Shown: positions 9,953 to 64,000 of the stretch, piece after piece
Position numbering within the stretch: the stretch's first letter is position 1
Layout of the letters: each line of letters begins with the position of its first letter
Assembly (NCBI GenBank): GCA_905178155.1
Contig: CAJINV010000002.1
Coordinates: forward strand, 9,988,650-10,052,649
Reading direction: 5' to 3'
Source: Amoebophrya sp. A120
Taxonomy: Eukaryota; Protista; Dinoflagellata
Length of the DNA stretch: 64,000 bases
Program-made: the position numbers and the translations under genes
Notes under the pieces: generated by a model
Databases searched by the model: none
Told to the model about the DNA's origin: nothing
The model's input: the letters and a program-made list of their open reading frames with translations, nothing else

Positions 9953-12900
9953 TTATAAAGTACTTTTGTCTTTCAAATGCGGCGCCAGTGCCTTCTGCGC
10001 GATGACGGCCTCCATCTCCATTGTGTATTGCGCGTCGAGCTCGACTTCCGTGGCGATGACTCCCTTGTTCTTCAGCTTTTCCTTCTTTGATTTCGCGGAC
10101 TTGGTCTCCACGAGCGGCTTTAAATGCAGCGTACCGGCCTCATCCCGTAACGGGTCCCAGCCCATGGCGTGGAAGAAACTCCGCTTCTTGTAAAGATGCG
10201 ACCGGACCTTCTGCGTCACCTGATGCCTCTTCCGGTACGCGCGGATGATGCGGTGGGGCTGTCGCTCCATGATACGGTCCTCCTCATCCAGCGCTTTCCG
10301 CACGTAGTACTTCGTGACGAAGGGCGTCAGCATGTTCCGCTGCTTCGACATGTCGTCCGGCACGGAGAGCGTCCGCTCCATCTTGTTCACCCACCCGAAG
10401 CCCCTCTCAATCTCGTGCGCCGTCACCGCCTTCTTCACGTCTTTCAACACCTTCTTCCCCCGTTGCGACAGCGCGTAGTGCAGATGCCGGCGGTCCCCTT
10501 CCGTCTTGCTCCCGTCCTCGTCGTCCGCACGCATTCCGGAGATGCGGCCGTCGGACCGCTTCAGCAGATTGCTCATCAAAATCCCCGCTTTTCGGACGGA
10601 CAACACCTGGTTGGGGTGCGGCTCCAGCCCGATTTCCTGCTCGGCCAGCATCGCGGAGCTGCTCCGCCGGGTCAGCAGGCGCCGCCGGTCCAGTTTCGAG
10701 TCCTTCTTCGTCAGCAGGCGGCCCGCCTTCTTTTTCTTCTTCTCGATCTTCCCGCGGTCCTCATCCACCTCCCCACCGTCCTCCTCGCGCACCAACGGCT
10801 GGGGGTCGTAGCCCCGCCACTTATTGCCGTCGAAGAAGAAGTTTTTCAGAATCAGCAGCTTCGCCGCGAAGATCTCCTTCGTTTTCTCGAGCTCCGCCTC
10901 GCGCTTCAGCCGGATCGCCTCTTTGCGCTCGAATTCCGCGTACTCAATGTTCGCTTCCAGCACCTCGCGGTCCTTGATAAATTTCCGGACCGCCTCCTCC
11001 TTCGACAAACCGCCCTGTTCCGCGGCGCGCTCCTCGGTCGATCCGGCCTTCCGCTTCGCCAACATGATGTCCGGATTGAAGGGAATCAGCTTCGCATGTT
11101 TGAACACTGGTTGAAACGCCGATATGCCGCTGCTCTTGCCCTCGCCGTCCCGCGCGTCGCCGCCGAATAACAAGGCCTGCAGCTCCCCGGACCGGCAGGA
11201 CGAGTAGATCTGGTACGCGATTAGCACGCCGAGGAAGGCGCCGCCACCGAGCATGAAACTCGACGTGCCCCCCTCCTCCCCGGCGTCCGCTTTGCCGGTG
11301 ACGCGAAACTGCGGGTCGCTCGTCGCCCACTCGTAGGGGACGCCGCGCAGCTCGTACACCGCCACGACGTCCCCCTGGTCCGTCTTGTCCTTCAGCCGGA
11401 AGCCCTGGGACTTTTGGTATAGCAAGCAGTTCATGCTGGTCACCTGCCGCAACTCCGTCTCCACGCTGCCCGGCGCCACCGGCACGGTGGTGAACGACTG
11501 GTACTCGAAGCCCTCGGGCCGCTCGCGGAAGTAGCTGAGTCCGTGGTCGATCGCGGCTTTGCGGCAGTCCTGGTAGGACGACGCGTCCACGACGAGGATC
11601 TCCTTGTAGCGGTCCACCAACATATCGTCGTTCCGGAAAAACTTAGTGTCGTTGCAATTCGAAATGTCGAAGGTGATCGTCAAATCCTCCGGGTTGCACG
11701 TCATGAACAGGTCCCCGTCGAAGTCCGGGTGCACGTCCTGGCACTTCAGCGAGTCGTCGGAGATCGACTCGTGGGGCACCAAAAAGGGGCGCACCGTGGT
11801 CGCGTTGCGCAGAATCGGGTTCCCGTCCAGGTTGATCATCGACTGCTGTGGCGCCATATCAAATGTAAAAATGTCTGGGTCTGGAAGAATGCAACTTGTG
11901 ATGCTGCATTTGGATTCCAAAAAAATCTGTGTTGCATGAGTACCAAAGGGAATGCAATTTTTGCCACGCTGAGAAGGCATTTGTCATGCGGAAAAGGCAT
12001 CGCGAAGCTCTCAAAAAATATGTGATGCTAGGGCATGCATCACAGACATCAGGACTCATGCAAAAAGTGCATGGCAAGTGTCAGAATCTTCCAGGAGACC
12101 CAGACATTTTTACAGTTGATATGCCAGCTGGTCGCCGCGGACCAGGGTCCGGCACACCTCGGGCACCGGGTTCACCACCATTGGCGAACAGTAGTCGAAC
12201 CGCAACAGCGGGTCCACCGTGAAGCACCAAATGCTGTTACTGCCGCCCTTGTCCGCCTGCCCCTGGTTGCGTCCGTCCGGGTTGCGGCAGTAGTTCTGGT
12301 CCAAGGGCAAGTCCACCAGCAGCCCCCCGGGGTAAAACACGTCCGGGTTGTAGTTGGTGACGCCGAAATCGGACGGGGCGTTCGGCGACCGCGTGGTCAC
12401 GCCAAACGTTTCGGGCGCCTTCGTGGTCGACGCGTCGATGGCATTCTGTCGGTTGATCAACTCCTGCTGGACGTAGGGATTCTCCTCGTTGAACCCCCGG
12501 TCATCCAACAACGGCGTCGTCGCGTCCGCGGTCAGTGTGGAGAAGGGGTGTAGGTGCGGGATGATCTCCTCCCAGGTCTGACACCGGAGCCCGGTCGTGG
12601 TGGTGTACGCACACCCCACGTAGTTGTCGTACGTGAACTCCTCATTGCACTGCCGCGTGCTCCACAATTTGTTCAAAAACACGAACCCGTGCGTCTCGTT
12701 GTACTCCAGCAAGTTCGGCATGCGGTTGAACCGCAAATTGTGCCGCAGTGCGATGTTCACATCCACCAACGCGTGCATCGTGCGGTTGTTCAGATCTCGT
12801 AAAAACTTTTGCTCCTCCGCTGCGGACCCGAACGGGCTGGGCAAGTACAGCATTGCGCGGGTTCGGTTGTACTCGCAGGAGGAGATCTGCAGCCCGTACG

Positions 12901-20460: not shown

Positions 20461-20723
20461 TATCAACTGCAAATATGTCTGGGTCTGGAAGGGTGTGAAC
20501 TTGTGACGCTGCAGCTGGATTCTACAAAAATCTGTATTGCATGAACAGCACAAGAGGTCCAGTTTTTTCCATTGCGAGAGGGCATTTCTCATGCGGTATA
20601 GGCATCAGAAAGCCCTCACAAAATCTGTGATGCTAGGGCATGCATCACAGACATGAGGACTCATGCAAAATGTGCATGACAAACCTTGCACCCTTCGAGA
20701 CCCAGGCACTTTTGCACTTGATA
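20461..20723. mobile_element. Family A element, 263 bp, TSD CCAGA; no host CDS identified
   Basis: Family A TIRs. CCAGA at 20456-20460 and 20724-20728. Confidence 0.92.
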
Positions 20724-30669: not shown

Positions 30670-32829
30670 CTAATCCCCTCGCGGATTATCACAACTGTCG
30701 ACACTACCCGCATTCCAATTCTTCTCCCTGTCCATCTCCAGCTCCTGCCGCTTTTTGCGCAACTGCTCCAGTTTCTCGCGGTGTCGCTTCAATTTCTCCT
30801 GTAAGGTTTCGGCTGCGGACAGTGTGGGGGAAGCAACTTTTTGCGAATGGTGCAGTGTGTCTGCAACAACTTCTCCACACATATCACGATCTTCAGTTCT
30901 GCCAATGATTTTCGTCATCTTGTCCGTCTCTCCGGACCGAAAAGTATCTTCGACGTCCGCGTGCCTCTCAGTCGTCCCAAGTCCTCCACTGCGAAAACTG
31001 TTCGCCGCGAGCGCACTGATTATCGCACCGTCTGCAGCGGGAGTGTTACTGTCATGCTCATCTCCAAGAGGATTTGATGCATTTGTTCCTTCCTCGCACG
31101 ACATTCCTTTTTCCGCCATAGTTCGTGCGGTGCTGGAGGTCGACGCTACTTCTCGCTCAACACTGGCACCACTGCTAGAACTGGCAGACACACCTTCCCC
31201 AATGGCAGGTTTCGATGGCGCTTTATTTGTTTTCAATCGATTCCCGAAGAGTCGCTGCGCCACGTCCGCGTCGTCGAGTGTCCCTGAGCTACTTCGCGAC
31301 GACGCAGAACCGCTCAGGTCCTTTGACGAATCATCTGTACTCTCATTTTTCTCCCCCGCTGCCCGATTTGATGCCAGGATCATGTCGCTCATCTGCTGAA
31401 TGACCAACTTCTGCTGCCTTTTTCGGCGCTCCCGCGCAATGCTGTGGTACGGGTGCAATCCGTCCAGCTCGTCATCGAGCAGTAAATCGACGTCTTTCAC
31501 TTCCTTCGTACTCGCGAGCAACGTATCCCGTGGCGGAACTGTGAGTCAAGGCACTTAAACTTGCAAACTTACTTATTTTCATAGCACACTGCTGCGACTT
31601 TGATGCATGACAAACGAGCAATTCAAATTCTGTCGTGAGAAATAACGATTTCTTGAACTACAAAGCGTGCAACCCCCGTCTCCGACTGCCGCGGCGACTG
31701 GATAGAAACACTTCTTCACTTTTGCTCGGAAACTGCAAGATTTCATCGAGTCTCGCCTTGACTCAAGAACGATTCTCCGACGATACAACTGCAGCCGCTG
31801 CTTCTCGAGTTCGGTGCCGCGCACGACCCGGGACTTACTGGATGCCCTGCTTCTCGCGGCTGATTTCCGCCCATACTCTTCCTCCCCCTGCTCCTCGGTG
31901 CCCGTGGCGTTCCGCCGGATGTTTGCCAACTCCTTCCGGATGTGCCGCAGGTGCGTCACCTGGAACTCGCACTTTTTCTCCCGCAGAACGTCCTTCGCCT
32001 TCGTGAACAGCGGCTGCAACCGCTCGTGTCCCACCATCATCGACATCAGCAGCTTCTGCTGCCGCTCCTGCGCGAACCGGCGCTGCCGAAACTTCTTTTC
32101 CGTGGCGCGAAACGCCTCCTGCTTGGTCATCTTCCGACCGGTGGAGCGTAAAGCTGCGCCTGCGTGGTTGTAGCTCCGCCCCGTGGATGATGAACTACTG
32201 TTCGCCCCGCCATTCATCAGCCGCAACTGGTGTGAAACAAATTGCATCACCGGGTGGTCACTGCGGTACACGTCGTTGCCCTGCTGCCAGTCGTTCCCGT
32301 CGGTGAAGCAGTCGACGAACCGGAGGTCCGGGTACTTCTGCAGCAAGTCGCGGACCAGGATACGGTATCAAATGTAAAAATGTCTGGGTCTGGAAGAGTG
32401 CGCGATTTGTCATGCTGCTTTTCCATGACCCATGAGGTCTGGAATGCAGGACCTAGCATGACAGATTCTGCGAGACCTTTCTAATGCCTATCCTGCATGA
32501 GAAACTCCCTCCCGACTTGGTCAAAACTGGACGACTTTTGGTAATCACGCAACACAGATTTTCGCATGCTGCAGATTTAGCATGACAAGTTGCAATCTTC
32601 CAGACCCAGACATTTTTACATTTGATATCCGGTACGGATTCGCGATCTTCTTGTCCTGCAGCTGCAGGTTCGTCAGCTCTAACGGCGGCACCCGCTGGCA
32701 GTACAGCAGCCAGTCCGGCCGCTCGCGGTAGCTTTGCTGCTCCAGCAAATTCTCCACCCGCTGCACCACGTCGTACCGTATGCCACGGTAGAAATTCGAC
32801 CCGTTCGGGTGGATGGCGCCTTTGGTCAT
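30670..32829 (-). CDS. Putative mitochondrial ribosomal protein mS23 (MRP-S23/Rsm25-like) with long C-terminal extension
   Basis: Exons join as KIANPY-RILVRDLLQKYPDLRF after removing element 32366-32627 plus 5 bp. RPDWLLYCQRVPP resembles the mS23 P-x-W...PP motif. A second join to ORF 30670..31521 is in frame. The family assignment is tentative. Confidence 0.55.
31540..31766. mobile_element. Candidate degenerate introner with short inverted repeat
   Basis: TGAGTCAAGGC (31542-31552) pairs with GCCTTGACTCA (31755-31765). GAAC direct repeat at 31536-31539 and 31767-31770. Removing 231 nt gives YRRRI-VPPRDTLLAS in frame. A GT-AG intron 31539-31838 is also in frame. Confidence 0.5.
32366..32627. 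mobile_element. Family A introner, reverse orientation, 262 bp, TSD TACGG/TCCGG
   Basis: Near-perfect 31-bp TIR. Flanks at 32361-32365 and 32628-32632. Confidence 0.94.
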
Positions 32830-34139: not shown

Positions 34140-34332
34140 CGACGGGAATGGTCACATGAAGACCAATTGTGTACGTCAAGTGCTGTCCCTGTCGCACAGG
34201 AATTTTCCTTTTTCTAGTTCTAGTAAATTATAGTGGTTCCAGTTTTCGAGTTTTACAACATTACTAAACGAGCTACAATCTGAAAACTTAGTACTACACA
34301 AATGATAAAACGAACTACATGGAAGAAAACAC

Positions 34333-34528
34333 TTCTTTGCTTTCCAGGGGTTCGAACTGACAAGAAGAGAGAACTTCTTTTCTTTGCAGGGGTTCGAACT
34401 GACAAGAAGAAAGAACTTCTTTGCTTTCCAGGGGTTCGAACTGACAAGAAGAGAGAACTTCTTTTCTTTCCAGGAGTTCGAACTGACAAGAAAAGACAAA
34501 TTCTCTTCCTTCCCGGGGGTTCGAACTG
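34333..34528. repeat. 42-bp tandem repeat, about 4.5 copies
   Basis: Unit approximately CTTCTTTGCTTTCCAGGGGTTCGAACTGACAAGAAGAGAGAA. Confidence 0.9.
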
Positions 34529-35046: not shown

Positions 35047-35275
35047 CAGTTCGCGCAGCTGCGCCGTTCGCAGCCCGTCAACTCGCGCAGCTGCGCAGGC
35101 AGTTCGCAGTCCATCAGTTCGCGCAGCTGCGCAGTTCGCAGTCCGTCAGTTCGCGCAGCTGCGCCGTTCGCGGTCCGTCAGTTCGCGCGGCTGCGCCGTT
35201 CGCGGTCCGTCAGTTCGCGAAGCTGCGCAGCTCGCAGCCCGTCAGCTCGCGCGTGCTCTGCAGTTTGCAGCTTGT
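35047..35275. repeat. About 32-bp GC-rich tandem repeat
   Basis: Unit approximately CAGTTCGCGCAGCTGCGCCGTTCGCGGTCCGT, about 6-7 degenerate copies. Confidence 0.85.
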
Positions 35276-55872: not shown

Positions 55873-57623
55873 CCGTCGCTTGATATCCCACAGAAAAAAA
55901 CTGGCAGGTCATATTTGTAATGCAAAAATAACTAGAAAAAAAAATTTGTATTGCATATCCGAAACAGCATGCTATGAGGCCGCCCATGACAGATCTTTCT
56001 GTGTATTTATTTTTGCATTACAAATATGCCGGGCCAGCTTTTTTCTGTGGGATACTTGACTGTCTGTATCAACTTCATCTTCCCGGGGTCTTGCTTTCGA
56101 ACCTTCCCGATGGAATGAACAAAAGTTCTTTGCGTGTGGTACTTAGGGTCGTGATGAAGTGATGCCACCCAACAACTTGCCGCTCGTATAAGGAGAGAAA
56201 AAGTTACGCAGTCTAAAAACGGATTCTTCTTATGGTTCCCCGTGCTGGTCCTCTACTTCCCGATCGATCTACTCTTACTGGATAGTAGTAGACAATTTTC
56301 CACCTCCGAAGTGCTGCTTCTTTTCGAGAAGTCCTGCTGGTAACTTCTCACTTCTACTGCTTTCCACAAACGAGGAGAGAAGGAGCGGCTTCGTCTCGAC
56401 CGCACATGGGGACGGACAAGCCATCGTATGCGTCGGAGGTCTCAGCAACAGTTGACCGGCATCCTGTTTCGAACCACGTCCTCTCCTGCACGGGCGCCGC
56501 CATTTCAGAGGTTACCAAGACATCAAGCCGATATCGATCAGTGCGAGGGCAGCAGCTTCTAATAGCGATTTTTTGGTGTGCGCAACGTTAAAAAAATTGG
56601 GGGGACGGAATTTTTACAGCACTTTAGATAGTAGCAGTTCTACCTTGCGAACAATCGTTTTTACAATGCGCGGAGGAGAATTGAGAACCCTATTCCTCGT
56701 CGCAGAAACTATATCACTAGCGGTCAACACAACTTCAAGTGAAAATCAAGATTCCCAAATAATTCTTGTGTGCCGTGTAGTAAATTTTCTCCTCGGAAAT
56801 CACAGCTCTGCAAGACGACAGGGTAGTACTCAACACACATGAAATTCAAAATCCTAATTTGTACAGCAACTAATTAAGTTGAAGACCCTGTAGCGCGATG
56901 GGCAACTGTAGAGAAAAATGTCTTGCCATGCTTCGGACTTGTAGTTATAGATGATATTCTATCTGCACTTCTTAGAGCCGCTGTGATGTGGTCGCAGTCA
57001 CAACATTAGTGAAGACTGCCGATCAGTGGTGTCTTCTCAGTTGTGATGAAAAAACACTCATTCCTGGTTTGTTATGTCTACTATTTCACATACTTACTAC
57101 TCCTTCCTCGTCCATCGTTTTCGTGCGTGCATTGATGTTGTGAAAGTGTTCAAGTCTACCAGAATTCGATTTCGAATTCGTTGCACTCTCGTGCATGATT
57201 GGCATCAAAACTACATGCTGCGCTACCACTAGAGGTGCGGCAACAGTTTCTTTCTGGGTTCTCTTCAAAAAAAAGGATCGAATCATTTTTCTACTACACT
57301 CAAGAATTGCACATGCATGCAGAAACAGTGCGGGCGCACTTGTCCTGAACAACCGTGTTGACTCATCTCGCACAATAGGAACACAGCACATCTCAGATCT
57401 AGTACCACTTGCGTGCAAACAAGCGAGGTGCTCTACTCAAATGAATCCTTGCTTTCATACAGCTTGTTCAAATCATTTCATAACAGTCGCTAGAATAAGA
57501 GTTCCGATGATTGTCTGTGCCTCCTGTCGCACTGCTTGCGCGTGAAGAACGGAAATAACGCACCCGATCGCTTCTGACGGTCGATAGCGCGCCGTCGGCA
57601 ACTTGGTCACCTGCCTGTACCAA

Positions 57624-60600
57624 TCAGCTATTGTCAATGGTGTTGATCATGTGCTGCGTGATGATACTGGTTCCCTTCTTTGGGTCTTTCGACACCCGCC
57701 AGTAGCGTTCGCACACCTGTTTCCGCGACAGCATCTGCACGAAGGTTTCGTCGTGCGTGATGATCATGAGCTGGAACCCACTGTGGTCCCGGCGGGTTTC
57801 GATCAAAGAGCCCAGCGCTTCCGCCAGCGCCTCGATGTTTTTCTCGTCCAGATTGGTCGTGGGCTCGTCCAGCGCCAAAATCCCGCACTGACACCCGAAG
57901 GAATCCGCCAGTGCGAGTCGCGTGATCAGACTGGCGAGCACCTTCTGTCCCGCGGAGCACCGGCCCCGCATGTCCAGCTCCGTACCGTTGGCCAGCATCA
58001 TCACGAGGCGGTAGTTGTAGGACCGACTGCCCGCCCCGCCCCGCTTCACCTGCGCAGCTTGTACAGGATTACTATTCGCGACGCCTTCGTTCAGCTGCAA
58101 GGGGTCACTATTCAGGTTGTTTGCCGCAGCTCCCGTCGCGTCCTCGGCGTCGGAGCGGATCTGCACGTACTCGATATCCTTTCCCTTGTAGATTTCCTGC
58201 CACAGGCTCCGCATGGTGAAGTTGATTTCCATCATCTTTTCCTGGTGAAACTTCATCAGAGCCACGTCCAGGCTGTTGAAGTACTTTTGGCAGTCCTGGG
58301 CCGCGGTTTTCACGCTCTGCTCCTCGATGATGGCTTTCCGGTACCGCTCGTCAATGTCCTGGTACAGGCTGGAATCCAAATTGTATCAAAATGAAAAATC
58401 CCCCCTCCCCATATCGCAACGAAGTTTCTGATGCTGGATTTCCGTACACAAATCGCAGCTGTCTTGCAGTACAGGACTGCAGGCGTATGCCAAGCCTCAG
58501 TCGAGAGGTTTTGACGTAGGTGCCTAGCATGGCAAACGTGTATGCTCTAAGCCCAGCAGCATCACAAACGGCCTGCAAAATGCGGGGCGCTCTTTGGACA
58601 TGCCTTCTTGCAAGACAGACAGGATTTGAGGTCACAAATGCGCATCACAAATTTTCAGACGGATGCGTTTTCAATATGGGGAGGGGGGATTTTTCCTTAC
58701 GATAAATTCCTCTGTGCGTCCAGCATCTCCACACCGATCTGGTGCAAGCTTCCCTGGATCTTCCCCCGGTCATTGATCGCCTGCTCGGTTTTCACCTGGA
58801 GTTGCTGCGCCAGCTGGTGCTCGGTCTCTGTCAACTGTTGCATCGCCGTCTTCATACTGCTGGGGGGCGCGTTTTGAAGATTTCCTATTTGTTCACTGGC
58901 AGATGATGAAGACGATGCCTGGTGGTTTTGTTGCCGTAGCTGCTGGAAAATCTGCGCCACGGGCTGCGGCAGGTAGCTGTCACCGAGATTGGCCAAATTG
59001 ATATCATTGTGACCACCACCGGCGACGTTGCTCGAGGACGATGCGGCCGCGGCGTTGCCGCTCCTCACGGGCGTCGGGGAGAAATCTGAGCCGCTAGACG
59101 AGTTATTCGGGTGGAACAAAGCACTATTTTGCTGTTGTTCTTCCATCTTAACCTCCACCTGGTCTGGCGACGACGGAGTCACGGCCGTCCCGGTCGCCGG
59201 AGGATAATTATTTCTGCCGCTATTTCCACTTTCTTGTTCGCGGAGGACATTCCGGCTCCACAGCTCGACCTCCTCGTAGCACTTTCGCAGCTCTCGCCAG
59301 TCGTCGGCGACTTTCAGCTCGTTGCTGTACTTCTCACAATCCGCTTGGGTGCGGTAGAGTTGGAGATTCTTCGCAAGCCAAAACACTTTGGTCTGCAGGT
59401 CGGCCAGGCTGCTCACCACCTCGTCCTTTTGCTGCTGTTTTTCTTTGTAACTCTTTTCCTTTTCGGAGACCGCGAGCTCGGCGCGCTTCAACTCTTCCCG
59501 CACACTCTCCGCGTTCCGGATCTTCTGTTCCAGCTTCTCAATGTCGGTGTTCAGCTCCTGCAGCTTCTGCATCTTGTTCGCCAACTCCGTTTGCTGCCGC
59601 TCCAGAAACTGCACAATCTGCTTCTGCAAGTTCTCGAAGTTCCGGCACTCCAGCTCCACCTGTTTCAGCTGCTCCTGGACCTGCGCGGAAAAGCTGTCCA
59701 GCTGCTGCAGATTGGCGCTCAACGCGACCAACTCCTGCTCCACGTTGGCAACTTGCTTCTGCAGCTCCTCTTTCCGCGTCATCTTCTCCTGCAGCAGCTG
59801 AAACCTGGACTGCAATTCTGTGAGCCGCTGCCGCCGCCGCTGCTCCTCTTCGTTCAGCTGGTTCAGCTGCTGCTGCTTCTGGTCCAGCGTCCGCTCCAGC
59901 TGGTTCGACTGCTCGAACAGGGCGGAGAGCTCCTCCCGCTCTCGCGTCAGCTCGTTCTTTCCGGCCGTTTGCGACGTTCCCGCACTTGTTTGCCCGAGTA
60001 GCGCGGCGGGGTTGCTGATCGACATCTCCTTGTCGCGCAGGTTCCGCTCCGCGTCCCGCAGCTCTTCCTCCATGCGCAGCAGTTGCTGAAAATGCACAAT
60101 AACCGGCTTGAACGAGTTTTGTTCCTCCACCAGCTTCGCGAATTCCGCCTGCAAATTCGTGATGTCGAACTGCTTCTCCTGCACGAGTTTTTGCTTCGCC
60201 GTGTTGTTCTCCTGCTCGGCGCCAAGTTTCTGCTGGCACTCCTGCAGTTCCGCGAACTTCGGTTTCAAATTTTCCATCGCCGCGAGCTCCGCTTCCAACT
60301 CCTTCACTTTGGCTCCTGATTCCGCTCCGCACTTCTTTTCGATCATCTGTCGCAGCTTCGCTACCTGCGCTACCAGGGCTTGCCTTTCCGCCTCGTTGGC
60401 AAAGGGTCGCTTGCACATCTCGCGTATCCTGCGTAACAACGCCCTCACGGGGGAATAAAAATCCAGATGGGGCTTCCGCGCGAAGCAGTCTTTATTAAGC
60501 GAGGGACTTCACCACTTAAGCGAAGCACTTAAGCGAAGCAGTTAAGCGAAGCACTTCAGCGAAGCACTTAAGCGAAGCACTTCAGCGAAGCAGTTAAGCG

Positions 60601-63600
60601 AAGCACTTCAGCGAAGCACTTGAGCGAAGCACTTCAGCGAAGCACTTGAGCGAAGCACTTAGGCGAAGCACTTAGGCGAAGCACTTAGGCGAAGCACTTA
60701 GGCGAAGCACTTAAGCGAAGCACTTAAGCGAAGCACTTAGGCGAAGCGCTGCACTTAAAGCACTATTTAAACGGGGCACTACTTAAGCGGGTCACTACTT
60801 GAGCGGGGCACTACTTAAGCGGGGCACTACTTAAGCGAGGCACCAGTTAAGCGAGGCGCTGCCCCTAAGCGAGGCACTACCTGTGCGAGGCACTAATTAC
60901 GCGAGGCACTACTAATGCGACGCACTACTTATGCGAGGCACTACCCAATCCAGGCACTACTTAAGCTAGGCACTACTTAAGCCAGGCACTACTTAAGCGC
61001 AGCACTACTTAAGCGAGGCACTACTTAAGCGAGGCAGTACTCAATCCAGGCACTATTTAAGCCAGGCACTACTTAAGCGAGGCAGTACTTAAGCGAGGCA
61101 CTACTCAATACAGGCACTACTTAAGCCAGGCACTACTTAAGCCAGGCACTACTTAAGCCAGGCCCTACTTGCGCGAGGCACTACTTAAGCCAGGCACTAC
61201 TTAAGCCAGGCAATACTTGAGCGAGGCACTACTTAAGAAGCGAGGCACTACTTAAGCGAAGCACTACCTGCGCGACGCACTGCATAGGCGAAGCACTACT
61301 TACTTCAGCGAGGCACTACCTTCTCCACCTGAGGTGCGGTACTATTTCAGCACTACCTAAAGCGACGCACGGCTTAGACGAGGGGCTACTTGAGCTCGGA
61401 GCCACTCCGAAACAGTTAAGCGAGGCCCTTCTGCGAAGTACTACTTGAGCAGCGAAAAACTACTTAAGCAAAACGCGTGAGCGAAGCACTAAAGCCTCGC
61501 GAGCAAAATTTGCATGACGAATCAATATGGCATCGAGAGAACGTTGCTCAACGGGATATCGCAGCAATCCTTTTTCAGGGATCTCTCTTCCATCGCGTTG
61601 TACAACTTAGCACCATTCTCGATCAACGCGAAGTTGCTCCTTTGGCCTTCGAGGCGTTCTTTTACGTCGGCCAGCTTCTGCTCAAAATCGGCCAGATCGG
61701 TGAACGCGCTGAGCTCTTGCCTCAGCCTGGCTGCGCCGCTTCCCAGTCTCTCGACCTCCTTGTCGCTGTAGGTTTTTTCCGAGATCCCCTTGTGGTGCTC
61801 CTTTTGCTTCGCGTCCGTTTGGCCTCTCAAAGTCGCGAGCATTTGGTTCCCGTGCTGCTCGATTTTCTGCGCTTGCTGCAGGCACTGCTCCGCGATTGCG
61901 GGAAAGCAGGACGAAGCAGCTCCGGCTGGTAATCCGAACGACGTGCCGGAACTACTGCTGAAGTTGTTCGTGGAGAAATTATTGCTGGATGTCGAGAAGC
62001 CTCCCACATGGCTATTGGTCACCCCTCCGGCAGCCGATCCAGTTGTAGACAGCAGTCCCTCGATGCTGCTTCTCGCCTCGTGTCCGAACCAACTTCCGGG
62101 CGCGAGGCCCGCAATGACGGTCTTTACCTGCACCTTCTTCTCGTCCAGCTCTTTCAGTTTCTCCTGCTTCGCGTTTTGCAGGAACTCCACCTCCATCAAC
62201 AGCTTTGATTGCTCCTCCAAAACCTGGATCCGGTCCTGTTTCTCCTGAAACGAAAATTGCAGGTCGTGCTTCTCCTTCCTCAATTTCGCGACTTCCCTCT
62301 CCAGCTCGTTTTTCCGCGTTTGCGTTTCCGCCCCCGCGGTCTGGGTCTGCTGCTGCACCTTCTGCAATTCGCTCTGCACCTGCTCGTACTCGCGCTGCAC
62401 TTTTTGGTAATTCTGCTGTTCCTGAAACAGCTGCGCCTTCCGCTGCTGCAGCTCGCGCTCCCGCGCGCGTTGCGACTCGCACTGGATCCGCGCATCCTGC
62501 GCTTTCTTGCCGATCCCCTGCACGTTCTGTCTTTTTTGCTCCAGTTCCGCCGCCTGCCCCTTCTGCAGCTGCTGCAACTTCGCGCCGTGCTTCAGGCACA
62601 GCTGCTGCAGCGCGCGCATCGTCTCCCCGTCGTGGTGCTGTAGTTGCACGAGGGTTTGCTGGTTCTTGTTCTGCACCCCCGCGGAGGAGGAGGAGGAGGA
62701 GGCTCCTGCAGATGGTGTAGAAGTAACAGTGTTGTACACCTGTCGCTGCAGAACTTGTTTCATCTTTTGGTCCAACTCCCCCTCCAAAACGGCTTTGAGC
62801 GAGCAACTTTGCACCAAGCTAGCACCGACCTGCGACATCAGTTGCGACGCTTGCGGCTGGCTCCCGAGCATGGCGGCCAAATTCTGTTCGCTGTCCTTCC
62901 CAACAGTCGTCAAAATCTCTCCGCGCCACAGCTCCTCGCGCCGCTCGTTTCGGGTTTTCAGCAAATCGCCCGCGGCGGCGACCTCGCCGATCTCCGAGCG
63001 GAGCTGCTTCACCGTTTGCTGAACCTGCTGAAACTCCTGGTTTGCCAAGTGTTCCTCCTGGTCGAGCTTTTCCTTTTTCTTCCCCAGCTCGGGGATGGTC
63101 GTGTCTGTCAAGTTATCAAATGTAAAAATGTCTGGGTCTGGAAGATTGCCAGGTTTGTCATGCACATTTTGCATGACTCCTGATGTCTGTGATGCCTGTC
63201 CTAGCATCACAGATTTTGTGAGGGCTTCCTGATGCCTATACCGCATGACAAATGCTCTCTCCGTGTAGCAAAACTTGGACTCTCTTTGCTGCTCATGCAA
63301 TACAGATTTTTTTTTAGAATCCAAAATCTGCATGACAAGTTGGATTCTTCCAGACCCAGACATTTTTACAGTTGATACAAGTCTTTGCTTTCTTCCTCCA
63401 GGTCCGTGACGATCTCCCGCGTCGTATCCTGAGCAAAAACGTCCCCACCCCAGAGTCAAGATGGGGAATCCGCTAGGCAAAACCGCCACCTCTGGTTGTT
63501 TCGCATGACAAATTTATCCTCGTAGTGTAATCCTCTTTAGCTAGTTCCGAAGCATCACAGATCTAGCATATCATGCTGATTCTAGCATTACAAATTCCAA

Positions 63601-64000
63601 AACAGGATAGGAAAATGGTTCTTATGGGGCTCCGCATGAGAAACTTTTTTAGCATGCAGATCTGCATGACAACTCTGGTGTGGGGACATTTTTACTCAGG
63701 ATACGTCGTGCGCCCCTCCGGCTCCACGAAGATCTGCTCGCACTTATTACAGTGAAAAATGCTCTCACCCCCAAAGTTGCAAGCATTTGTGATGCGAAGT
63801 TTCCAAATGAAAACTTTTTGTCATGCATGAAAGGACTATGAATCTTTCTGATGTAGAGTCTAGGCGTGTTTCGCATCGCTTGCATGACAAGCACCGCTCT
63901 TGCTGGGATCTTTTGCAATACAAATTATTTTTACTATTCACGATCGGAAATCTGTGATGCTGATACATGCAAGAGGGCGAATGTTTCATTTGGAAAAGTT
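57624..64000 (-). CDS. RAD50: DNA repair protein RAD50 (5' part outside window), interrupted by five TIR elements
   Basis: [46 protein letters not shown], IITHD; long coiled coils; reconstructed zinc hook CEMCKRPF. Confidence 0.95.
58384..58704. mobile_element. Family C-related introner, 321 bp, TSD AATTG/AATTC
   Basis: TIR TATCAAAATGAAAAATCCCCCCTCCCCATAT / ATATGGGGAGGGGGGATTTTTCCTTACGATA. Removing 326 nt gives AQRN-LDSSLYQDIDERYRK. Confidence 0.92.
60425..61558. mobile_element. 1134-bp introner (family D-like ends) filled with minisatellite, TSD TCGCG/TCGCA
   Basis: TATCCTGCGTAACAACG versus right-end reverse complement TATCCCGTTGAGCAACG. Flanks at 60420-60424 and 61559-61563. Confidence 0.85.
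60514..61320. repeat. Two-phase minisatellite: 13/14-bp GCGAAGCACTTAA, then 16-bp GCGAGGCACTACTTAA
   Basis: Visible tandem arrays; the period changes near 60750-60775. Confidence 0.95.
63114..63377. mobile_element. Family A introner, reverse orientation, 264 bp, TSD CAAGT
   Basis: CAAGT at 63109-63113 and 63378-63382. Removal gives EEESKDL-TDTTIPEL. Confidence 0.95.
63425..63703. mobile_element. Family D introner, 279 bp, TSD CGTCG
   Basis: TIR TATCCTGAGCAAAAACGTCCCCACCCCAGAGT / ACTCTGGTGTGGGGACATTTTTACTCAGGATA. CGTCG at 63420-63424 and 63704-63708. Confidence 0.95.
63745..64000. mobile_element. Family C element, opposite orientation to the 43267 copy, cut by the window end
   Basis: Starts TATTACAGTGAAAAATGC. 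Interior matches the reverse complement of 43267-43582. Predicted TSD GCACT. Confidence 0.9.

Follow-up and report, generated by a model that had tools for sequence, protein, structure and literature searches.

The RAD50 locus and its zinc hook

We analyzed a stretch of 64,000 nucleotides (nt) of contig CAJINV010000002.1 of Amoebophrya sp. A120 (the window, whose positions are used throughout). On the minus strand of this window the gene RAD50 is interrupted, within the codons of its zinc hook, by a TAT...ATA element that we call the hook element. An earlier reading made from the letters alone (the sequence-only reading) had identified the gene as RAD50 and proposed that removal of 1,139 nt rebuilds the hook. 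The main features of the locus are as follows; residue numbers refer to protein P0001.

57441..58377, minus strand: last exon of RAD50, containing the Walker B region and the stop at 57624, with 3' untranslated sequence, from reading frames, contigs and Pfam
58704..60423, minus strand: RAD50 exon downstream of the hook, approximately residues 855-1427, from tblastn and contigs
60425..61558, minus strand: TAT...ATA element of 1,134 nt, which with one 5-nt duplication copy makes a 1,139-nt non-canonical intron
61561..63113, minus strand: RAD50 exon upstream of the hook, approximately residues 337-854, from tblastn

The gene name was borne out by a protein search with the last exon. The match at 100% identity was P0001, a protein of 1,677 amino acids from Amoebophrya sp. 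A120 by its source name; next among the matches listed was an A25 protein at 70%, followed by proteins named RAD50. P0001 is the public gene model CAD7936014.1, and tblastn placed three of its exons in this region. Pfam reported AAA_23 (E 1e-30) and SbcC_Walker_B (E 6.5e-6; 26.7 bits, just below the cut-off of 27). The protein has the split ABC ATPase layout of RAD50, with a C-terminal Walker B region and a long coiled coil, and carries a central CxxC zinc hook, CEMC at residue 854 of 1,677. By hand count, 81 of the 95 proteins listed with at least 900 amino acids carry the motif CxxCx[R/K] (120 were listed, and 25 shorter ones were excluded). The A25 ortholog aligns without gaps through the hook site and reads CCELC. 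For other RAD50 proteins, dimerization mediated by zinc at the hook is established, according to the available parts of PMC9569753 and PMC6969161.

The sequence-only reading had allowed that another intact RAD50 copy might be the expressed one. We saw no sign of a second close copy in A120, since a single A120 protein was found among the 120 listed relatives and the exon letters of sequencing run X1 (see below) showed no variants. A search for loci similar to the last exon returned one distant locus (L001, 49% identity), which was not used. As a side observation, the A120 protein is long (1,677 amino acids, compared to about 1,300-1,330 in most relatives) and has low-complexity Ser/Asn/Gly insertions in both coiled-coil arms, partly common to A25.

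Removal of the insert from likely transcripts

Four of eleven sequencing runs (X1, X3, X6 and X9) were compared with window positions 57300-60505. Contigs of X3 (5,603 nt, depth 84.5) and X6 (3,930 nt, depth 14.8) both contained 58704-60423 and then 30 letters identical to those of the window from 61563 on, so that 1,139 nt are skipped. The same contigs skipped the 326-nt neighbor intron (joint 58377-58704) and had zero depth at 57300-57406, ending just beyond the stop-codon region as transcripts do. Run X1 was read as DNA because coverage was full and ran unbroken through 58678-60505 into the hook element, with no differences and a flat depth of 45.7, and because no contig for the 326-nt joint was present among the loose ends listed. 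Run X9 (raw RNA with the same species label) was uninformative, with one read of 3.3 million placed.

The 1,139-nt join was therefore found in two of the four runs, both guessed to be RNA, and the public gene model agrees with it: the hook stretch of P0001 reads KKDCCEMCKRPF (CCEMC) with the insert already left out, so that CAD7936014.1 already removes the 1,139 nt. X3 and X6 are two samples of one study and may depend on the same data as the public model. We conclude that the 1,139-nt insert, which includes one copy of the 5-nt repeat, is absent from the likely messenger RNA (mRNA) contigs of RAD50.

The exon ends were as the sequence-only reading had described them. On the minus strand the upstream frame reads ...SLKKDCC and continues into the insert for 12 codons before it is stopped; the frame on the downstream side reads EMCKRPF, and removal of 1,139 nt gives CEMC in the RNA-like contigs and in P0001. 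An mRNA lacking CEMC, the outcome that would have spoken against this picture, was not what the RNA-like contigs gave. The proposed tolerance of interior length was likewise upheld, as an insert of 1,139 nt is removed in these contigs and in the public model.

The rebuilt CxxC had also been taken as the strongest single argument for base-exact removal, and this argument proved less strong. Two of the enumerated removals show this: 1,142 nt taken out in frame with GA...AG ends leaves CCMC, and 1,139 nt taken out in a different register with AT...AG ends leaves CDMC. Since both are CxxC as well, the motif alone leaves the junction unfixed, and it is the RNA and the A25 ortholog that decide it. 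The junction can be located further by means of the duplicated target, whose two copies differ.

61559..61563, minus strand: upstream member of the target duplication, with the letters TGCGA (the codon of the first hook Cys and two bases of the Glu codon)
60420..60424, minus strand: downstream copy, CGCGA, with base 1 different

The duplication is 5 nt long with one mismatch (4/5 alike), or 4 nt if exact; read on the plus strand, TCGC is present at 60420-60423 and again at 61559-61562, at a spacing of 1,139. If the downstream copy were kept entire, the first hook Cys would become Arg; the mRNA-like contigs retain base 1 of the upstream copy (61563), a T. Therefore, the cut in the hook element lies after base 1 of the duplication. 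One of six registers is excluded and five equivalent ones are left (TA..GA, AT..CG, GA..GC, CG..CG and GC..AC), none of which is GT-AG, GC-AG or GA-AG, and the nearby in-frame GA-AG options are not the form assembled. The hook element is a non-canonical intron.

Anatomy of the hook element

The ends of the element form an imperfect terminal inverted repeat (TIR), and a short motif lies interior to the 5' arm.

61535..61558, minus strand: 5' arm of the TIR (6.5 bits, the most decayed arm)
60425..60448, minus strand: 3' arm of the TIR (12.0 bits)
61503..61521, plus strand: subterminal motif, 17/19 identical to the interiors of insertions at 20665, 21435 and 63154 (blastn E 0.74, weak alone)

The arm scores come from a profile built from 28 arms, which themselves score 11.6-27.4 bits. 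A TIR of roughly 17 base pairs (bp) had been claimed, and 12 of 17 positions were indeed identical (binomial p ~1e-4 on a 25% background, junction given). We refined its extent, as the pairing runs over about 24 nt with 16 of 24 positions identical (p 2e-5, junction given). An inverted-repeat finder missed this repeat, which was too imperfect for it. Both arms begin with TAT and have AAC and AGC at positions 11-13; the outer TAT/ATA and TATCC are intact, while the inner arm positions have drifted. The 3' arm is 21/26 identical to the ends of a neighbor element at 63425-63703. Rfam gave no match at E up to 1.

Most of the interior consists of two minisatellite arrays.

60513..60747: 13-bp array, 18.1 copies, 92% matches
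60760..61302: 16-bp array, 33.6 copies, 81% matches

Degenerate units widen the array region to approximately 60485-61500, which leaves about 120 nt of other sequence, so that the arrays make up about 90% of the element. The 13-bp unit resembles the 16-mer minus three bases. Of the arrays named by the sequence-only reading, those of 13 and 16 bp were confirmed, and the 14-bp period was reduced to one bridging unit of 14 nt. The number of units rests on the assembly: the DNA-like contig stops 64 nt past 60505, within the 13-mer array. The longest exact internal repeat is 51 nt. The search for the repeat unit elsewhere, which had been suggested earlier, showed that the 16-mer had 21 matches in the window at up to 2 mismatches (chance mean 0.04), all of them within the hook element. 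The unit had no match in metagenome contigs and none in viral contigs, where the organism is possibly absent, and four repeat words had no match in Dataset S2 of PMC12130899, which apparently holds gene identifiers instead of sequences.

Two further minisatellites with 42-bp and 32-bp units were observed at 34322-34528 and 35047-35252; they are apparently intergenic and lie outside any TAT...ATA element with a duplication.

Related elements in the window

A scan of the window for TAT...ATA pairs gave 54 candidates, of which 21, the hook element included, were picked by eye. The 5-nt flanks directly outside TAT...ATA were at least 4/5 alike in 15 of the 21: identical in 11 and one base different in 4, the hook element being among the latter; the remaining 6 had no clear duplication. 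The earlier estimate of four times the usual size was accurate, as the hook element is 4.27 times the median of the 20 other candidates (median 267 nt, largest 402 nt, without the 5-nt repeat). Its arm identity of 16/24 was the lowest of 15, compared to 17-24 in the 14 clean elements.

No further copy of the hook element was found in the window. Its genome-wide copy number was gauged by X1 depth at the 3' end, which was 55.2 at 90% likeness compared to a background of 45.7, i.e., near single-copy. Given the decayed arms and this near single-copy end, the hook element appears to be an aged and degenerate relative of the common elements rather than part of a young family. The term 'minisatellite-inflated introner' of the sequence-only reading thus holds for the inflation by minisatellites; membership in a repeated family is at the level of a candidate, the tested 3' end being near single-copy.

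The next intron of RAD50 served as an internal control.

58378..58703, minus strand: next RAD50 intron, a high-copy introner of 326 nt (joint 58377-58704 in X3 and X6)

Its summed X1 depth reached 204,008 at the end, compared to about 45 in exons. Here, too, the duplication copies differ at base 1 and the mRNA keeps the upstream base. Base 1 of the downstream copy is C in both introns (2/2, which may be chance). On the transcript strand, duplication copies were also observed to differ at base 5 (element 11857-12121) and at base 4 (32366-32627); the proteins cannot bracket the cut further because the mismatches in these two elements are silent.

Several other observations concern the elements in general. 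The motif GCAT[GCT]ACA occurred 48 times in 20 elements (8223-63703), at 9.6 per kilobase (kb) compared to 0.35 outside, a 27-fold difference; it was found in elements with different ends and is possibly a binding site for mobilization or splicing. The array of the hook element contains GCACTAC, which differs from GCATTAC by a single change and is a weak pointer to what seeded the array. The downstream frame of RAD50 is open backwards across the whole 63114-63377 element into the next one (window 63114-63513). This element with its repeat measures 269 nt, not a multiple of 3, and therefore the open frame is probably due to chance.

Predicted pairing of the ends

On the transcribed strand the eight mismatches between the arms of the hook element are four G-U pairs, one A-C and three others. 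Four of the five transition mismatches are thus G-U on that strand, and with G-U wobble 20 of the 24 positions can pair. The predicted arm duplex has -33.2 kcal/mol on the transcribed strand compared to -25.1 kcal/mol on the other strand. With flanks of 5-14 nt, the inner helix had a predicted probability of 0.98 compared to at most 0.01 in the antisense, and paired ends were also predicted when the intron was folded by itself.

No support was obtained for an effect of the arrays on the end stem, whether blocking or helping: in predictions with 60-nt flanks the stem failed to form with the real array, with 5 of 5 shuffled versions and without any array. In 13 of 15 elements of the window the minus strand gave the stabler arm duplex, and the genes of this region apparently lie mostly on that strand. 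This bias hints at selection for RNA pairing, with family and strand uncontrolled.

Origin, mechanism and alternatives

We think it probable, taking the evidence as a whole, that the hook element is an old transposon-derived intron with a repeat-swollen interior, whose cut sites are set by the predicted pairing of its ends. A short TAT...ATA element (the approximately 120 nt of non-array sequence) would have entered the codon of the first hook Cys, creating the 5-nt duplication, after which its ends decayed. The 16-bp unit may then have expanded by slippage or unequal exchange; expansion of the 13-bp derivative is placed later because of the higher identity of its units. In the pre-mRNA the 24-nt arms would pair and leave the locally folded arrays as a passive loop, and the RAD50 exon would be restored when the two repeat copies are cut and joined at corresponding positions. 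The boundary would then be measured from the stem, not read from dinucleotides. We regard the borders as most likely set by pairing of the ends, probably with help from proteins. As the candidate catalyst, a spliceosome without U1 is narrowly preferred to an endonuclease with a ligase.

Several results weigh against this interpretation. With exon flanks of 40-100 nt the predicted probability of the stem fell to 0.02-0.00 (0.01 at 60 nt), because the upstream exon is then the predicted pairing partner of the 5' arm, and forcing the stem with such flanks costs 4.0-10.6 kcal/mol. All nine comparison elements held the inner helix at 0.79-1.0 with 60-nt flanks, and the duplex of the hook element was the weakest of 15. 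The excess of G-U over A-C across the 15 elements, 18 to 9, had a one-sided p of 0.06 in a test where strands were inferred and families are not independent. A homolog of the interior was looked for and none was found. The Pfam hook model PF04423 matched none of five full-length alveolate RAD50 proteins, P0001 included, for which reason the hook in P0001 was assigned by position and motif. Finally, the RNA status of X3 and X6 is a guess, and contigs drop rare isoforms.

The main rival to end pairing accepts the same intron and the same origin and has proteins recognize the ends directly as sequence (TAT...ATA and internal motifs), with a cut at a fixed distance and RNA pairing as an incidental transposon leftover. 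The predicted loss of the stem to the upstream exon is accommodated there, as the intron is removed nonetheless; so are the intact outer TAT/ATA and TATCC next to drifted inner positions, and the density of GCAT[GCT]ACA in the elements of the window. Against it, the strict form of that motif has no copy in the hook element, and four of the five transition mismatches between its arms are G-U on the transcribed strand. Predicted folds of 1.2 kb at 37 C cannot be relied on and take no account of co-transcriptional effects, and in Euglena the pairing of ends is needed, according to the available part of PMC12501133. We regard direct recognition as unlikely. Somewhat more doubtful is a stronger proposal, in which a non-spliceosomal machine recognizes the TAT...ATA ends of A120 non-canonical introns and cuts within the duplication behind base 1, passing over GA-AG and GC-AG sites nearby and requiring no stable hairpin. 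Should it be true, such a machine would be naturally demonstrated by the hook intron, whose stem is the weakest in the window and which has 1 kb of repeats between its ends and an essential Cys codon where it is cut.

The remaining alternatives question the intron or the insert itself. A GA-AG intron of 1,142 nt, removed by the spliceosome in the ordinary way, has its sites in frame and rebuilds CxxC as CCMC; both RNA-like contigs show the 1,139-nt join, which contradicts it as the main form, and the public model and the A25 ortholog carry Glu, so that we give this reading the least credence of all. Excision from DNA at some life stage, in the manner of the internal eliminated sequences of ciliates, would make the 'spliced' contigs products of an edited genome. 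The transposon-like ends with target duplication would suit it, as would the lack of a record that X3 and X6 are RNA. Their contigs, however, end just past the stop-codon region like transcripts, and X1, one DNA-like sample, crosses the junction unbroken at depth 45.7 with no neighbor-joint contig among the loose ends listed; we consider such excision very improbable. We judge about equally improbable an assembly error that inflated the arrays of an insert of ordinary size. It is true that no read or contig examined spans the arrays and that their longest exact repeat is 51 nt. Still, the units vary in a patterned way (81-92% matches, many variants), which collapse or duplication errors over 1 kb do not produce.

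Comparison with known systems

MITEs (miniature inverted-repeat transposable elements) are non-autonomous DNA transposons with TIRs and target-site duplication and no transposase. The hook element shares these traits: terminal inverted repeat, target-site duplication, no transposase. Unlike MITEs, it is removed from RNA as an intron, and we have no evidence of present mobility or of a cognate transposase.

The nonconventional introns of Euglena, as described in the available part of PMC12501133, also have no GT-AG, slidable direct-repeat borders, paired ends (a prediction in the hook element) and cuts set by spacers from a terminal motif, and tolerate changes of interior length (plus or minus 5 nt tested). 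They use CAG/CTG motifs with spacers of 3 nt and 5-6 nt, whereas the hook element has TAT/ATA and spacers that sum to 5. Euglena is an unrelated lineage, and the comparison is one of working only.

Closer are the A120 introners of Gozashti et al. 2025 (PMC12130899, available part), which are bounded by TIRs and carry open reading frames (ORFs), e.g., family 38; in that study, candidates with satellite-driven homology were discarded. These introners have TIR and direct-repeat bounds and a long interior in the same genome. They differ in having near-identical copies and transposon-homologous ORFs, while the hook element is decayed and filled with tandem repeats. Because of these ORF-bearing introners, long interiors are not new in kind. 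A partial literature search found no paper on array-filled examples of such introns.

The closest match is the set of Amoebophrya introns reported by Farhat et al. 2021 (PMC7789003). In the available part of that paper, more than 60% of A120 introns are non-canonical, validated by RNA sequencing, and U1 was not found. The introns analyzed were 40-1,000 nt long with a mean of 240 nt; the inverted repeats (IRs) have 8-20 nt, with those of A120 starting with TAT, and direct repeats (DRs) of 3-5 nt lie over the borders. The A120 IR consensus is TAT, seven bases, then at least 3 A. RAD50 is not named in the main text. The hook intron shares with them the organism, the lack of GT-AG ends, an IR beginning with TAT, a short direct repeat over the borders and no sign of coding capacity; a hairpin is predicted for it with short flanks. 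It differs in its length of 1,139 nt, above the published range, in being approximately 90% minisatellite, and in that the AAA run after TAT and seven bases is absent. It has the 8-20 nt IR (imperfect) and the 3-5 nt DR of their introner elements (IEs), and, because the tested end is near single-copy, their 'singleton' class suits it better than an IE family does. Since exact removal is documented genome-wide there, and ORF-bearing A120 introners are published (PMC12130899), the hook intron is not, as the sequence-only reading had it, the strongest single argument for exactness or for tolerance of length.

How tens of thousands of non-GT-AG Amoebophrya introns are removed, apparently without U1, is a question for which the hook intron is a limit case and no solution. 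Its value as such lies in a size above the published range, the most decayed ends of 15 elements, and decoy canonical-like sites that also yield CxxC and were not assembled. This makes it a good test substrate for non-canonical splicing, and the logic of duplication mismatches, applied genome-wide with existing RNA sequencing, could locate the exact cut site. Set beside the known systems, the hook intron is an unusually long and worn member of the A120 non-canonical hairpin introns of PMC7789003, and not a new kind.

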